Shown here piece by piece: positions 36,428 through 49,194 of a DNA stretch of 64,000 bases (the first letter of the stretch is position 1; each line of letters begins with the position of its first letter). The stretch is from a phage. Position numbers and translations under genes: made by a program. The DNA is taken from sequence record PZ019084.1. One strand, written 5' to 3'. Under the pieces are notes generated by a model, which was given only the letters and a program-made list of their open reading frames with translations, was not told the origin of the DNA and ran no database searches.

Positions 36428-36748
36428 TTATTCTTTAAATCTAATCAATTTATTCATAGACTTTGTAACTTCTGCACGAACCTCATGTAAGTTTTTAAGC
36501 TGTTCAAGACGCTGCTCGTAGTAAGCAATTTCATCTTCTTCGAGACAGTCTTGTGAATCTTCTTTAAGATAACGTGCATAATCCTGGAAAGCTTTACGGA
36601 CTACTTCTTGGAAGTCATCAAGACTTTGAATTTTCTTAGGAGCAACAGATACACGACGAGGGGCAGTATAATACTCATAACCAAACCCTGCGCTTAATTG
36701 AGCCATTAATATTTTTCCTCTGGTTGGAACACAGCACGACAAGCCCAC
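36428..36748 (-). CDS. hypothetical protein (106 aa)
   Basis: vs.3 position. Confidence 0.5.
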
Positions 36749-36972
36749 ATACTAGCTTCTTTGAGTTTCGTTTTAGCAATAGTTAACTGATCGAGGCTTT
36801 CAGCATAATTCTTTGCGAATTCGCAGTCTTCACAATTATCTAGTGCTTCCCAGAATTCGTCATATAAAGCGTCAAAGATAAGTCCTAAACGAACTTCAGC
36901 GTCTTTGATAGCATTCACTTTACCGATTTTCTCTTCAGTGTGCGGCTTATAACCTTTAATGTCTTCAATCAT
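36706..36972 (-). CDS. hypothetical protein (88 aa) in the vs.4 position; candidate Acb2-type cyclic-nucleotide sponge
   Basis: By position only; the T4 vs.4 product is reported to antagonise CBASS. Confidence 0.45.
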
Positions 36973-37186
36973 ATTCTACTTCCTCACCAGTACATAAATC
37001 ATATTCAACTAAACGAATAGGTTCATGAATGCCATATCCTTGAACAGAAATTTCTGTCGTAGGATAAATTCCATCAATATCACCCATGGTCCACGCTTCA
37101 TTAAATTGCTGTTCGCCTGAATTACTAAACCACTCGGCGAAAGCATTTAACACATCTTTAGAACCTTCAATAATTATCTTTGCCAT
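36965..37186 (-). CDS. hypothetical protein (73 aa)
   Basis: Small acidic ORF. Confidence 0.45.
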   Translation of the reverse strand: MAKIIIEGSKDVLNAFAEWFSNSGEQQFNEAWTMGDIDGIYPTTEISVQGYGIHEPIRLVEYDLCTGEEVEYD

Positions 37187-37548
37187 TACAAGCTCTCAGT
37201 AAAGGTACGAGCGATAACGTCGCGCTGCTGTTCCGGAGTCAGAGAGTTAAAGCGAACTGCATAACCGGATACACGGATGGTCAGCTGCGGATATTTTTCC
37301 GGATGCTTAACTGCATCTTCCAGAGTTTCACGACGCAGAACGTTAACGTTCAGGTGTTGACCACCTTCAATTTTAACTGTAGGCTGTTGTTCAATTTCAA
37401 TTTCACGGGTGTGCAAACCGTAGAAAATTTCTGGGTCTACAAAAGAGTCCTCTTTAAAAGTTTTAGAGACAATAATTCGTGCCTGAATACCATCTTCAAA
37501 ATAAATAGTACCTTTATGTGTGCCTTCAAGAATTTGATATGCTTTCAT
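37186..37548 (-). CDS. autonomous glycyl-radical cofactor (GrcA/YfiD-like)
   Basis: 120 aa; C-terminal half matches E. coli GrcA as remembered, with glycyl-radical motif RVSGYAVRF; coding DNA 37190-37390 is GC-rich unlike its surroundings. Confidence 0.85.
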
Positions 37549-37554
37549 ATAACC

Positions 37555-37935
37555 TCAATTAGAAAATAAATTTATCCAAGACTGTTCTTTAATTAAAAAT
37601 GGCTCAGAATCATATGCCATTAAACTTTGGGTGATTAGTCCTTTAAAAGGCCCATCAATAAATTCCATGGTAAAATATGGAATTTTATTCATTAATCTTG
37701 CATTAGGAGCAGTGCACAAAACTCTGCATCCTTTGAATACGCCTTTTTGTAATTTGTATTGCTTAGGATAAAATTCGCTCAAGACGTTGTTATTTGCCAA
37801 AATTTCAAAATGATTCACCAATTTATTTTTAATAGTTTTTGGCGAAAAATAAAGATATTCGAAAAGTTGCGTATCTGTCATCATTGCATTCCAATTACGA
37901 AAAACTGTGGACGAGTAATACCACCAATGCAACAT
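37555..37935 (-). CDS. hypothetical protein (126 aa)
   Basis: Minus-strand ORF. Confidence 0.5.
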   Translation of the reverse strand: MLHWWYYSSTVFRNWNAMMTDTQLFEYLYFSPKTIKNKLVNHFEILANNNVLSEFYPKQYKLQKGVFKGCRVLCTAPNARLMNKIPYFTMEFIDGPFKGLITQSLMAYDSEPFLIKEQSWINLFSN

Positions 37936-38420
37936 TTACTATTGCAGCAGTGTTGCACAGTTTCAATATGAATATCGTAAATTTTATCCATATCAGGAGA
38001 TTTAACAGGCTCATCGATTATATACAAGATTCGAGAAAGCGATAAACCTCTGAACTTGCTACCTCTATTACCAACAAAACTACGGACAGAATCGGTAAAT
38101 AAGCGAAATCGAATATCATCGCTAGAATAACGAGAAAATTCTTTTTTAATGTGGCCCGCAGAAATTTTAGCGTAAGCTGAAGTATTAGAAAGAACAATAA
38201 CTGTTCCACCGTCATACAGCCAATTAGCAGCAAAATTAGTCACAGCAGTTGATTTACCAGATTGGCGTCCACCATCTAGTCGAAGTGTACAATATTGTTT
38301 AAGCAAGTCTTCAAATGGTGGGATATAATCGTTTTTACAAATTTCTTCTACTCTAGCATCAGAATGGTGTGTAAAAGCATTCATCAGGGATAGATAAGGA
38401 CCAGTTAAAAATGTTCTCAT
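37881..38420 (-). CDS. P-loop NTPase (179 aa from MRTFLT; track ORF starts at 38468)
   Basis: Walker A GGRQSGKST, Walker B YIIDEP. Confidence 0.55.
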   Translation of the reverse strand: MRTFLTGPYLSLMNAFTHHSDARVEEICKNDYIPPFEDLLKQYCTLRLDGGRQSGKSTAVTNFAANWLYDGGTVIVLSNTSAYAKISAGHIKKEFSRYSSDDIRFRLFTDSVRSFVGNRGSKFRGLSLSRILYIIDEPVKSPDMDKIYDIHIETVQHCCNSKCCIGGITRPQFFVIGMQ

Positions 38421-38573
38421 TTTATTCTCTCTAAATTTGGGCCATTCCATGGCGCATGAATTGTCCATTTCTGTATTTACCCATTACCGCACTTGGGCTC
38501 GACCTTATTACAGGTTGGCGGGAATCCCTCATAGAATCATGAGGTCCAGCTTGTTCCCATATTTCTTATTTGC

Positions 38574-39047
38574 TTATTTGAATGATTTGACGTACTGAAT
38601 AGAGCCTTTGCTATTCACGAAAGCGATTTTACCATTTTTATTATACATGGTAGCAGTACGCTGATAACCATAAGTTTGCTTACCAGATTGATAACCAACT
38701 AATGCAAAATTATCTTCACCCATTTTATTCTGTTTAGCGCGGATGCGTTCATGACCGTGTGCCATAAGAACCTTAGCGTCGCCAGTTGCAATGGATCTAC
38801 GAGTTTTTTCATCTTCAACTGTATTAACAAAATCGTCAAATGAATCAAATTTAGCATGGGATTTATTATACAGTTTTCCATCTACTGCATAATTATATCC
38901 TTGTACATCCATCTCAACTTCTGTACCGTCATCCAATACAGCAGTGATTTTTTGACCTTTTTTAAATTTCAAAAGATCAGTAAAAGATTCAGCAATAATT
39001 TGAGAATTAATAGCTGCTTCAGTAATAAATTCTTGGTATGTTTTCAT
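38574..39047 (-). CDS. capsid-targeted internal protein (157 aa)
   Basis: N-terminal capsid targeting sequence MKTYQEFITEA with prohead-protease site ITE/A. Confidence 0.7.
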   Translation of the reverse strand: MKTYQEFITEAAINSQIIAESFTDLLKFKKGQKITAVLDDGTEVEMDVQGYNYAVDGKLYNKSHAKFDSFDDFVNTVEDEKTRRSIATGDAKVLMAHGHERIRAKQNKMGEDNFALVGYQSGKQTYGYQRTATMYNKNGKIAFVNSKGSIQYVKSFK

Positions 39048-39153
39048 GTATATCCTTTAAATGTAAATAATTTTATTCTTTAAGTTTGGGACAATTCACA
39101 CATGAATTGTCCATTTCTGTATTTATCTATTACCGAGTTCGGACTTGGCTTTA

Positions 39154-48115: not shown

Positions 48116-48116
48116 T

Positions 48117-48302
48117 CTATTCACCTTTAGAAATTTTATCCATAACAATAGCGATTAAACCAATTAAAAATGCTACTACAAGTGAAAAAACATTTTCTGC
48201 TGTAGTCAATAATCCGCATATAAATCCAACAAACATTGAAAAACTAAAAGCGGAAGCAGAAATTGCAATAGCAACATTTCGAATTAATTCACAACGTTTC
48301 AT
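48117..48302 (-). CDS. small membrane protein (61 aa)
   Basis: Two hydrophobic helices. Confidence 0.5.
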   Translation of the reverse strand: MKRCELIRNVAIAISASAFSFSMFVGFICGLLTTAENVFSLVVAFLIGLIAIVMDKISKGE

Positions 48303-48321
48303 TTTATTCTCCTCGGTAGTT

Positions 48322-48362
48322 GATAGGGTAATAGTATCACAACTAAAACCCTATGTAAACAA
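48322..48362 (-). promoter_or_regulatory. T4-type early promoter
   Basis: GTTTAC (48360-48355). Confidence 0.5.
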
Positions 48363-48378
48363 CTTTGTGAAATATTTA

Positions 48379-48666
48379 TTACAAAAGATTTTTAGCAATA
48401 ATCTTGAGATATGCCGCAGAAATGTGTTTAGCTTTAAACAACGCAGTTTCTTCAGCAGGAGAGATAATGATTGTAGCACCATCCTTTTTAGCAGACCACC
48501 CATCACCTAGGTAAACAGTACCTTTGATTTCTTCGCCATCAACCAAGCTAATCATTGGTTTACCTTCTCGTCCTTTATTTGCTTTAATAACTTCAGAAGT
48601 AAGAGTAGCTTCAGTAATAGTAGAAACCGGGGTAGTTGTAGAAGTAAATTCTTTGAAAGTTTTCAT
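48379..48666 (-). CDS. ipI: internal protein I (capsid-targeted, injected with DNA)
   Basis: 95 aa; targeting sequence MKTFKEF...ITE/A (cleavage would leave 76 aa); position between 57B and tRNAs. Confidence 0.8.
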   Translation of the reverse strand: MKTFKEFTSTTTPVSTITEATLTSEVIKANKGREGKPMISLVDGEEIKGTVYLGDGWSAKKDGATIIISPAEETALFKAKHISAAYLKIIAKNLL

Positions 48667-48689
48667 TTTATTTTCCTAATTAATTTTGA

Positions 48690-48728
48690 TGAGATAATAG
48701 TATCACTACCTCATCAGCATGTAAACAA
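48690..48728 (-). promoter_or_regulatory. T4-type early promoter
   Basis: GTTTAC (48726-48721), TACTAT -10. Confidence 0.5.
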
Positions 48729-48738
48729 CTTTGTGAAA

Positions 48739-49194
48739 TTATTTTAAATCATCTGCCCAATCGAGTTTAAGAGGCTCTTTGTATTCACGATCTAATACGA
48801 CCGGAATTTGTACATCACCGCTAAATGATAAGGGCCCAACATTATAAGACAATGTTATATGCGGCGTGTAATCATCAAAATCATGTGTAGCACCTAGTGC
48901 CCGCGCATACATGTGTCGACAGCGCAGATATTCAGAATCTAGCACAAGTACAAGAGTCGATCCATCTTGTGTTTTCCATACTTCTAAATGTCCAGAAGAA
49001 GCTACTTCAAAACTTCCGCTTGATGGAACATACGGAACATTTACTCTTGAATAACATATGGTCGAATGAATTTTTTCTCTAGGAACTGGATTAGGAACAC
49101 GTAAAGAGCGCTGGAGTTCTTCCAGCGCATCAAGTGTTAATTCTGAAAACTTAGCTGCTACATAAAGACCCGTTGAAAAGTCTTTAAATTCCAT
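48739..49194 (-). CDS. 57B: gene 57B protein (T4 57B is reported as the Acb1 anti-CBASS phosphodiesterase)
   Basis: 151 aa, position adjacent to 57A; function from T4 literature, not re-derived here. Confidence 0.7.

Follow-up and report, generated by a model that had tools for sequence, protein, structure and literature searches.

Counterparts of the T4 counter-defence genes vs.4, 57B and ipI, and candidate internal proteins, in a Tequatrovirus genome segment

Introduction

Does the genome segment in which a T4-like phage is expected to carry vs.4, 57B and ipI encode true counterparts of these T4 counter-defence genes, and does it hold a larger anti-defence set than T4 itself? In T4, it has been shown experimentally that Vs.4 is a hexameric sponge which sequesters cGAMP (PMC10097602), that 57B (Acb1) cleaves cyclic oligonucleotides (PMC9117128) and that IPI inhibits the type IV restriction enzyme GmrSD (PMC12373910, PMC3012670). 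A preliminary description of the phage DNA analysed here (64,000 nucleotides of record PZ019084.1, referred to as the window) had assigned three open reading frames to these genes by position, and had suggested that, together with extra internal proteins, they form a substantial anti-defence repertoire.

Genomic context of the three genes

The window belongs to a Tequatrovirus (T4-like) genome, the nearest genome being that of Tequatrovirus G50 (96.6% nucleotide identity). Between 35.3 and 50.8 kb it is collinear with T4 from vs.1 to gene 3, comprising 26 genes that all lie on the minus strand. The three open reading frames are present on this strand at exactly the coordinates claimed (36706-36972, 48739-49194 and 48379-48666), and alignment with T4 Vs.4, gp57B and IPI gives 100%, 100% and 98% identity, respectively, which bears out the positional assignment. 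Pairwise alignment had been proposed as the check, with lack of significant similarity as the result that would speak against the assignment; the similarity to T4 proved to be strong in all three cases, with BLASTP E-values (1e-65 to 1e-115) that rule out chance. Pfam and PDB searches are concordant for all three proteins, with Pfam scores far above the gathering thresholds, and an NCBIfam search of ten proteins from the window gave zero matches. On the basis of sequence identity, of synteny and of the presence of all the published catalytic, ligand-binding and processing residues, the interval is almost certainly the Tequatrovirus T4 vs.1-to-gene-3 segment with bona fide orthologues of the three characterised counter-defence genes.

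Vs.4 and 57B, predicted antagonists of cyclic-oligonucleotide signalling

The vs.4 (acb2) gene (36706..36972, minus strand) encodes a predicted cyclic-oligonucleotide sponge of 88 amino acids, all 88 identical to those of T4 Vs.4, and each of its 16 nucleotide differences from T4 (out of 267) is synonymous. As in T4 (PDB 7UQ2; Jenson et al. 2023, PMC10097602), the gene is located between vs.3 and vs.5; the locus differs from that of T4 in the C-terminus of vs.5, which overlaps the start of vs.4 by 8 nt. A PDB sequence search retrieved T4 Vs.4 itself (7uq2, E=2e-57) and, as remote matches, the Acb2 protein 'p26' of PaMx33 (8h2j/8ixz), and the protein also matches Pfam family Acb2_Tad1_hairpin (PF24729, 7e-20, 71 bits, cutoff 27) and PHROG 717 (2e-32). 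When the translation was read against the published residues (PMC10097602), those contacting the ligand (Y8, H11, K23, R79, F82) and those of the hexamer interface (L29, A66, A73, A77) were all found to be kept. For the identical T4 protein, both cGAMP binding and rescue of the phage from CBASS have been shown (PMC10097602, PMC12657218). The phenotype of the T4 vs.4 knockout was determined with a type II cGAMP CBASS whose Cap2 is inactive. In the mechanism proposed, Vs.4 would be an early product whose hexamer takes up 3'3'-cGAMP, with a Kd of about 30 nM in T4, and other signals of this kind between its subunits, and the CBASS effectors would therefore never be activated.

The 57B (acb1) gene (48739..49194, minus strand), located between 57A and ipI as in T4, encodes a predicted 2H-family cyclic-oligonucleotide phosphodiesterase whose 151 residues are all identical to those of T4 gp57B (NP_049750; Hobbs et al. 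2022, PMC9117128), and its 6 nucleotide differences from T4 (out of 456) are likewise synonymous. The T4 annotation is longer by one residue: its first methionine is absent here because 57A ends with TAA, not TGA, which destroys the first ATG of the ATGATG pair (T4 numbering is obtained by adding one to the window residue). The HxT/HxT tetrad, included in this identity, is intact, with H43-S-T45 and H112-I-T114 corresponding to H44/T46/H113/T115 of T4 (PMC9117128). The best PDB match was Acb1 7t26 (E=4e-62), a solved homologue with about 70% identity, and the Pfam match to Acb1 (PF23474, 2.6e-60, 203 bits, cutoff 27) covers profile positions 1-144 of 144.

The label 'RNA ligase', which is carried by PHROG 755 and by the RefSeq records of T4 and G50, together with the 2H HxT/HxT fold signature that is common to LigT-type enzymes, could be taken to mean that 57B is a 2H enzyme of RNA repair or of the RNA-ligase type, rather than a nuclease dedicated to countering CBASS. 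This is very improbable, given that a cGAMP-cleaving activity was tracked to purify the identical T4 protein, which degrades cGAMP, cUA and cAAA, that effector inhibition is lost in its H44A/H113A mutant (PMC9117128), and that a dedicated Pfam family, Acb1, now exists and is matched by 57B with the E-value given above. The label is an older, fold-based naming and does not contradict the experiments. As an anti-CBASS nuclease, gp57B would be a metal-independent phosphodiesterase whose tetrad linearises cGAMP, cUA and cAAA, thereby destroying enzymatically the same class of signals that Vs.4 would sequester.

Of the 22 nucleotide differences from T4 in vs.4 and 57B combined, every one is synonymous, so that purifying selection is visible. 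As both proteins are identical to those of T4, it is essentially safe to expect that they are active in this phage.

The restriction inhibitor precursor IPI

The third gene, ipI (48379..48666, minus strand), encodes an IPI* precursor made up of a 19-residue leader and a mature part of 76 residues, a putative inhibitor of GmrSD-type restriction. It is identical to T4 IPI at 93 of 95 positions, the differences being V67I and H86Y (V48I and H67Y in mature numbering). The PDB sequence search found IPI* (2jub, E=1e-43) over the mature residues 20-95, 74 of 76 being identical, and the Pfam family IPI_T4 (PF11634, 2e-52, 175 bits) is matched over profile positions 1-76 of 76. The capsid-targeting leader (MKTFKEF...) and the cleavage site ITE|A are intact, MKTFKEFTSTTTPVSTITE|A being identical to T4; the site follows the rule for gp21 (I/L-x-E, then A; motif rules in PMC9026906). 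As far as the T4 work (PDB 2JUB; Bair, Rifat and Black 2007; Rifat et al. 2008) is represented in PMC3012670, the likeness extends to the leader, the gp21 site, the length, the locus and the early promoter.

A T4 early-promoter-like cassette of direct-repeat family D2 is found directly upstream of ipI (48686..48739, minus strand), with the arrangement TTTACA-17-TACTAT and an extended TG, and T4 has this sequence too. Similar copies are located at 48320-48373 (before trna.4) and 44169-44222 (before e.8). Generic sigma-70 and late-promoter scans of the window gave no enrichment over shuffles, and the promoter evidence is limited to individually conserved cassettes of this kind.

In the proposed pathway, IPI would be synthesised with its 19-residue leader and directed to the prohead core, where the prohead protease gp21 would cut it after ITE; the product would be injected with the DNA, and the 76-residue, 8-kDa IPI* would then block the GmrSD-type type IV endonuclease that otherwise cuts glucosyl-hmC DNA. 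The glucosyl-hmC context in which IPI matters is present, since the left part of the window has a 97%-identical match under which an alpha-glucosyltransferase is annotated. T4 IPI inhibits GmrSD(CT596) after injection, and the inhibitors of this family are strictly variant-specific (PMC12373910); IPI would therefore be protective solely where the host has the cognate GmrSD.

Such narrow pairing, in which a GmrSD 90% identical escapes IPI* (PMC3012670, PMC12373910), raises the alternative that V67I and H86Y have shifted or abolished the specificity of the window protein, so that CT596-type GmrSD is no longer inhibited. V67I is shared with phage G50, whereas H86Y was seen neither in T4, in G50 nor in the other IPI sequences examined, and the exact window protein was not found in a collection of 15 billion sequences. 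Such a shift or loss is nevertheless unlikely: only 2 of 95 residues are changed, one of them conservatively and neither in the leader or at the cleavage site, and natural homologues that share 83-88% identity are common and retain the IPI annotation. Retention of the T4 activity is the preferred reading for IPI, although slightly less safe than for Vs.4 and 57B in view of the two substitutions.

Judging from their sequences, the three named genes are near-exact copies of T4 genes whose products have anti-defence roles that are already known, and the initial assignment is correct but ordinary; because the functions of vs.4, 57B and ipI were demonstrated experimentally on the T4 proteins, the finding is known biology.

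Other proteins with a capsid-targeting leader

A six-frame translation of the whole 64 kb yields exactly five matches to the leader motif MK[ST][YF]x[EQ]F, all of them at the N-termini of minus-strand open reading frames, where shuffles lead one to expect 0.01. The five products are IPI, IPIII, a T2-type IpIV and two proteins here called IpX1 and IpX2, and leader positions 4, 7, 8 and 10 agree with the determinants of targeting and processing that were defined by experiment (PMC9026906). The proposal of extra internal proteins is thus partly right and describes something real, but the net gain over T4 is only two because ipII is absent. In the same way, the repertoire called substantial is better described as a reshuffled T-even set, with IpIV in place of Ip2 plus two unannotated leader-bearing frames, than as an expanded T4 set.

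The ipIII gene (39154..39732, minus strand) encodes an internal protein III precursor identical to T4 IPIII at 176 of 192 residues (92%), with the leader MKTYKEFIAE|A and a match to PHROG 5341 'internal virion protein' (6.5e-117). T4 Ip3 inhibits the ECOR17 GmrS1/GmrSD2 system (PMC12373910, PMC9391042), and IPIII is the only one among IPIII, IpIV, IpX1 and IpX2 with a known target. The ipIV gene (38574..39047, minus strand) occupies the place of T4 denV and ipII, neither of which was found anywhere in the 64 kb window, and the Ip2 specificity is missing as a result. The exact IpIV sequence is present on 459 contigs and is named in public records as 'IpIV internal head protein' (T2) or 'Ip4'; it matches DUF7412 in Pfam (5.7e-96) and PHROG 3155, and its resemblance to T4 IPII is confined to the leader.

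IpX1 (44375..44938, minus strand; 187 aa, leader MKTYAEFLTE|A) and IpX2 (45064..45537, minus strand; 157 aa, leader MKSYAQFLNE|A) are candidate internal proteins, both with a mature pI of 9.5. Their leaders show the features of capsid-targeting sequences (aromatic residue at position 4, F at 7, I/L at 8 and E at 10; PMC9026906). In contrast to the two ip loci described in T4, they lie between rnaC and e.8, as terminator-bounded cassettes placed after rnaC, IpX2 having terminator hairpins on either side. The DNA coding for the IpX1 leader belongs to repeat family D1, as does that of ipIV, ipIII and ipI. An exact late-promoter motif, TATAAATA, is found 48 nt before the ATG of IpX2, and one with a single mismatch, AATAAATA, accompanies IpX1; window-wide, this motif is not above chance (13 found against 11 expected).

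IpX1 is present in 165 phage records, every one as 'hypothetical protein', IpX2 is always so named in the public records examined, and ip-gene naming of either was absent from the database records examined. Among 5.8 billion proteins, the relatives of IpX1 amount to only about 11 clusters, which are near-identical, and the family of IpX2 is slightly wider and confined to T4-like phages of enterobacteria. Both match PHROG 2280 (annotated as function unknown); considered as possible paralogues, they share only the leader in pairwise BLAST, and their alignment identity is 23%. The single-sequence AlphaFold2 model of IpX1 is helical and of low confidence (pLDDT 62, pTM 0.32), below the quality needed for searching by fold; a Pfam similarity of IpX1 to cytochrome b562 (E=0.007, 17 bits, cutoff 30) was dismissed as generic helical similarity. 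The model of IpX2, built from an 11-sequence alignment (pLDDT 72, pTM 0.44), gave nothing at E<=0.001 with Foldseek against the PDB and only members of its own family against BFVD.

Compared with the T-even ip gene family, as far as Repoila et al. 1994 (cited in PMC12373910) and Mullaney and Black 1996 (cited in PMC8442874) are reported in the citing papers, IPIII, IpIV, IpX1 and IpX2 share the leader of about 10 residues, MK(T/S)Yx(E/Q)F(I/L)xE|A, their mature parts are basic and their genes are flanked by regulatory cassettes. IPIII, IpIV and the two unannotated frames are most likely co-injected proteins of the functional class of IPI.

It is a real possibility, though not the one favoured here, that IpIV, IpX1 and IpX2 are instead basic proteins that condense DNA or fill the scaffold core and lack any specific target in the host. 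All three are basic (mature pI 9.1-9.5), as expected for DNA-associated contents of the head; no known target and no domain, PDB or fold match suggestive of an inhibitor is available for any of them, and PDB sequence searches gave chance-level matches only. Against this, the three T4 internal proteins examined to date, Ip1, Ip2 and Ip3, all proved to be specific GmrSD inhibitors (PMC12373910), and the genes of IpIV, IpX1 and IpX2 are dispensable, patchy in distribution and swapped among close relatives, a pattern typical of arms-race accessory genes. Within the favoured counter-defence reading, we tentatively suggest, as a rather doubtful proposal, that IpX1 and IpX2 constitute a third, previously unrecognised T-even ip locus, with promoter-gene-terminator cassettes inserted at the rnaC terminator and encoding injected proteins that inhibit GmrSD-type or other first-response defences.

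Implications for host range

The three named genes are textbook cases of T4 counter-defence, here in a relative of T4, and for that reason carry little scientific weight. From the gene set, the phage is predicted to resist CBASS systems of the cGAMP, cUA and cAAA types, CT596-type GmrSD and, via IPIII, ECOR17-type GmrSD. It would probably be sensitive to ECOR21/BrxU-type GmrSD, since ipII is missing, and, by analogy with T4, in which Acb2 is necessary and sufficient to trigger Panoptes (PMC12657218), probable sensitivity to this system is also predicted. The sole mildly new point is the third candidate ip locus, and IpX1 and IpX2 offer candidates for new injected anti-defence proteins that can be tested at low cost.

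Genomic setting

The genes of the stretch 36706-49194 lie on the minus strand throughout. When 36000-50200 was compared by megablast with 50,697 phage records, 1,204 T4-like records were matched, the top one being Escherichia phage vB_EcoM_G50 (genus Tequatrovirus), which aligns with 93% of the query at 96.6% identity; the sequences flanking this part of the window likewise match Tequatrovirus genomes, at 97-98%. Gene-by-gene BLASTP against T4 (AF158101, 61700-76000) showed that gene order is collinear between vs.1 and gene 3; of the 31 window ORFs, 26 pair in order with their T4 counterparts.

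Several local differences from T4 were also observed (all on the minus strand). The e.2 homologue (40772-41260) has 162 aa instead of 102 aa and is alignable over the first 95 residues only. In place of e.7 (43261-43844) stand two small, unrelated ORFs; one has 58 aa, and the other, of 110 aa, matches PHROG 18312 and 6869, neither with assigned function. The tRNA region (46296-47317) contains eleven tRNA genes compared with eight in T4 (the extra ones being His, Asn and Tyr), and lacks the homing endonuclease segB. Between rnaD and tRNA-Arg there is a 116-aa ORF (45927-46277; PHROG 3355, no function assigned) with no T4 counterpart.

The anti-CBASS genes vs.4 and 57B

The preliminary description assigned vs.4 (Acb2-type), 57B (Acb1-type) and ipI by gene order, alongside extra internal proteins. 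The positional call of the three genes was correct: the observation is confirmed and its interpretation supported. The genes are well characterised in T4, of which this phage is a relative, and so are already known.

The product of vs.4 (36706-36972, minus strand; 88 aa) is identical to T4 Vs.4 in pairwise alignment (88/88). In PDB it matches 7uq2 ('Vs.4'; 2e-57) and shows remote similarity to the PaMx33 Acb2 structures 8h2j and 8ixz; it belongs to Pfam Acb2_Tad1_hairpin (7e-20) and PHROG 717. As a hexamer, T4 Vs.4 binds three molecules of cGAMP (Kd ~30 nM) by stacking of Y8 and F82 and polar contacts of Y8, H11, K23 and R79, and its function is abolished by mutations at Y8, F82, L29, A66, A73 and A77 (PMC10097602). 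Because the two proteins are identical, every one of these residues is present. The neighbouring vs.5 (36965-37186, minus strand), with an 8-nt overlap at the vs.4 start codon, matches T4 vs.5 in the first 18 residues only and then diverges, with 73 aa versus 58 aa in T4.

The 57B product (48739-49194, minus strand; 151 aa) aligns with T4 gp57B at 151/151 positions, matches the Acb1 structure 7t26 at 4e-62 and covers the Pfam Acb1 model end to end (2.6e-60). The T4 annotation has one additional N-terminal Met, since the first ATG of T4's ATGATG is lost in the window, where the 57A stop is TAA and not TGA. T4 gp57B is a 2H phosphodiesterase that cleaves cGAMP, cUA and cAAA by means of an HxT/HxT tetrad (H44, T46, H113 and T115; PMC9117128). 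HST (residues 43-45) and HIT (112-114) in the window product are the same residues, with the numbering offset by the missing Met.

At the nucleotide level, 16 of 267 positions differ from T4 in vs.4 and 6 of 456 in 57B, all of them synonymous, and 8 of 288 in ipI, two of them non-synonymous. Judged from these alignments, the differences read as the signature of maintained function in the three genes, with a clear signal of purifying selection on both anti-CBASS genes.

ipI and the internal-protein set

The IPI precursor carries a leader that directs it to the prohead core, the protease gp21 cuts after L/I-x-E, and the injected 76-residue IPI* is an inhibitor of the E. coli CT596 GmrSD (PMC3012670, PMC9026906, PMC12373910). 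In the window, ipI (48379-48666, minus strand) encodes 95 aa, 93 of which are identical to T4 IPI, with the same leader and ITE|A site; residues 20-95 of the product match 2jub, the NMR structure of mature IPI*, and the Pfam IPI_T4 model is covered in full (2e-52). The substitutions are V67I, also found in G50, and H86Y (mature H67Y; codon 86, 48411 region), found in neither G50 nor T4. No phage record has this IPI at 100% identity, the closest being identical at 94 of 95 residues, and the exact protein was not found in a collection of 15 billion sequences.

The extra internal proteins were borne out by a six-frame scan of the window with the leader motif MK[ST][YF]x[EQ]F, which gave exactly five matches (0.01 expected in shuffles), each at the N-terminus of a minus-strand ORF: IPI, IPIII (39154-39732; 92% identical to T4), IpIV (38574-39047; 157 aa, DUF7412), and the candidates IpX1 (44375-44938; 187 aa) and IpX2 (45064-45537; 157 aa). 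Each of the five shows I/L-x-E|A at positions 8-11 (in IPI, 17-20), and the mature part is basic in every case (pI 9.0-9.6). In leaders mapped experimentally, positions 4 and 7 determine targeting and 8 and 10 processing (PMC9026906), and the five predicted leaders fit these determinants. IpIV has the same sequence as a T2 protein that is called 'IpIV internal head protein' or 'Ip4'; within 38469-39153 of the window it stands where T4 has denV and ipII, neither of which was found anywhere in the window. G50, the nearest relative, has a different leader-bearing ORF of 105 aa (MKTFKEFIAE...; L001 4553-4870) where the window has ipIII, so that mosaicism of the ip locus extends to genomes that are ~97% identical.

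The IpX1 and IpX2 cassettes

Relative to T4, IpX1 and IpX2 (44333-45618, minus strand) are inserted into the rnaC/e.8 spacer; in T4 rnaC is followed by a terminator hairpin, and the insertion sits directly behind its T-tract. The adjacent rnaC (45666-45804) and rnaD (45812-45927) are 98.6% and 88% identical to T4, respectively. T4 has one copy of the rnaC hairpin, AGCCCCGACCGAAAGGTyGGGGCTTTTT, and the window has two; each IpX gene is followed by a terminator hairpin, the second cassette being closed by a different one. The sequence TATAAATA, which matches the late-promoter motif exactly, abuts the first hairpin and lies 48 nt ahead of the IpX2 start (45537).

Both proteins are named 'hypothetical protein' in every public record inspected (phage records, n=165 for IpX1 and n=512 for IpX2; UniRef; NCBI names), and have no match in Pfam, NCBIfam or PDB. 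Their AF2 models are all-helical, with low to moderate confidence, and Foldseek with the IpX2 model found no neighbours outside its own family. Two ip loci are mentioned for T-even phages (PMC12373910); IpX1 and IpX2 are plausible candidates for additional internal proteins at a third. This cassette pair is the sole lead here with some novelty.

Expression

Upstream of ipI there is a T4-type early promoter (TTTACA-17-TACTAT with upstream TG) within a cassette of ~54 nt (TTTCACAAAGTTGTTTACAT...GTGATACTAT) at 48686-48739, which is repeated ahead of trna.4 (48320-48373) and e.8 (44169-44222); T4 likewise has the identical sequence upstream of its ipI. A second repeat family comprises the starts of the leader-coding sequences of four ip genes, and both kinds of repeat could be substrates for cassette shuffling. 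Neither vs.4 nor 57B has its own promoter; both overlap or abut the upstream gene (vs.5 by 8 nt, 57A by 1 nt), an arrangement consistent, by analogy with T4, with translation from long early and middle transcripts.

Implications for the defence repertoire

Two further genes would add to the counter-defence repertoire beyond this stretch: a homologue of nrdC.5 (24436-25434, minus strand; 93.7% identical to T4), which in T4 overcomes Dsr1 (PMC9391042), and gp2 (50839-51660, minus strand; 99.3% identical), which shields DNA ends from RecBCD (PMC3012670). A third such gene outside this stretch, an alpha-glucosyltransferase, is annotated under the 97% match to the left part of the window. The GmrSD variant that is inhibited differs between Ip1, Ip2 and Ip3, and there is no cross-protection (PMC12373910); therefore, the internal-protein set should cover CT596-type and ECOR17-type enzymes, and not those of the ECOR21/BrxU type. 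Finally, T4 Acb2 is necessary and sufficient for triggering Panoptes (OptSE), and T2 appears to bear a mutation in the Acb2 binding site (PMC12657218). This phage has the wild-type T4 Acb2 allele and is predicted to be Panoptes-sensitive, which would be a cost of intact Acb2.
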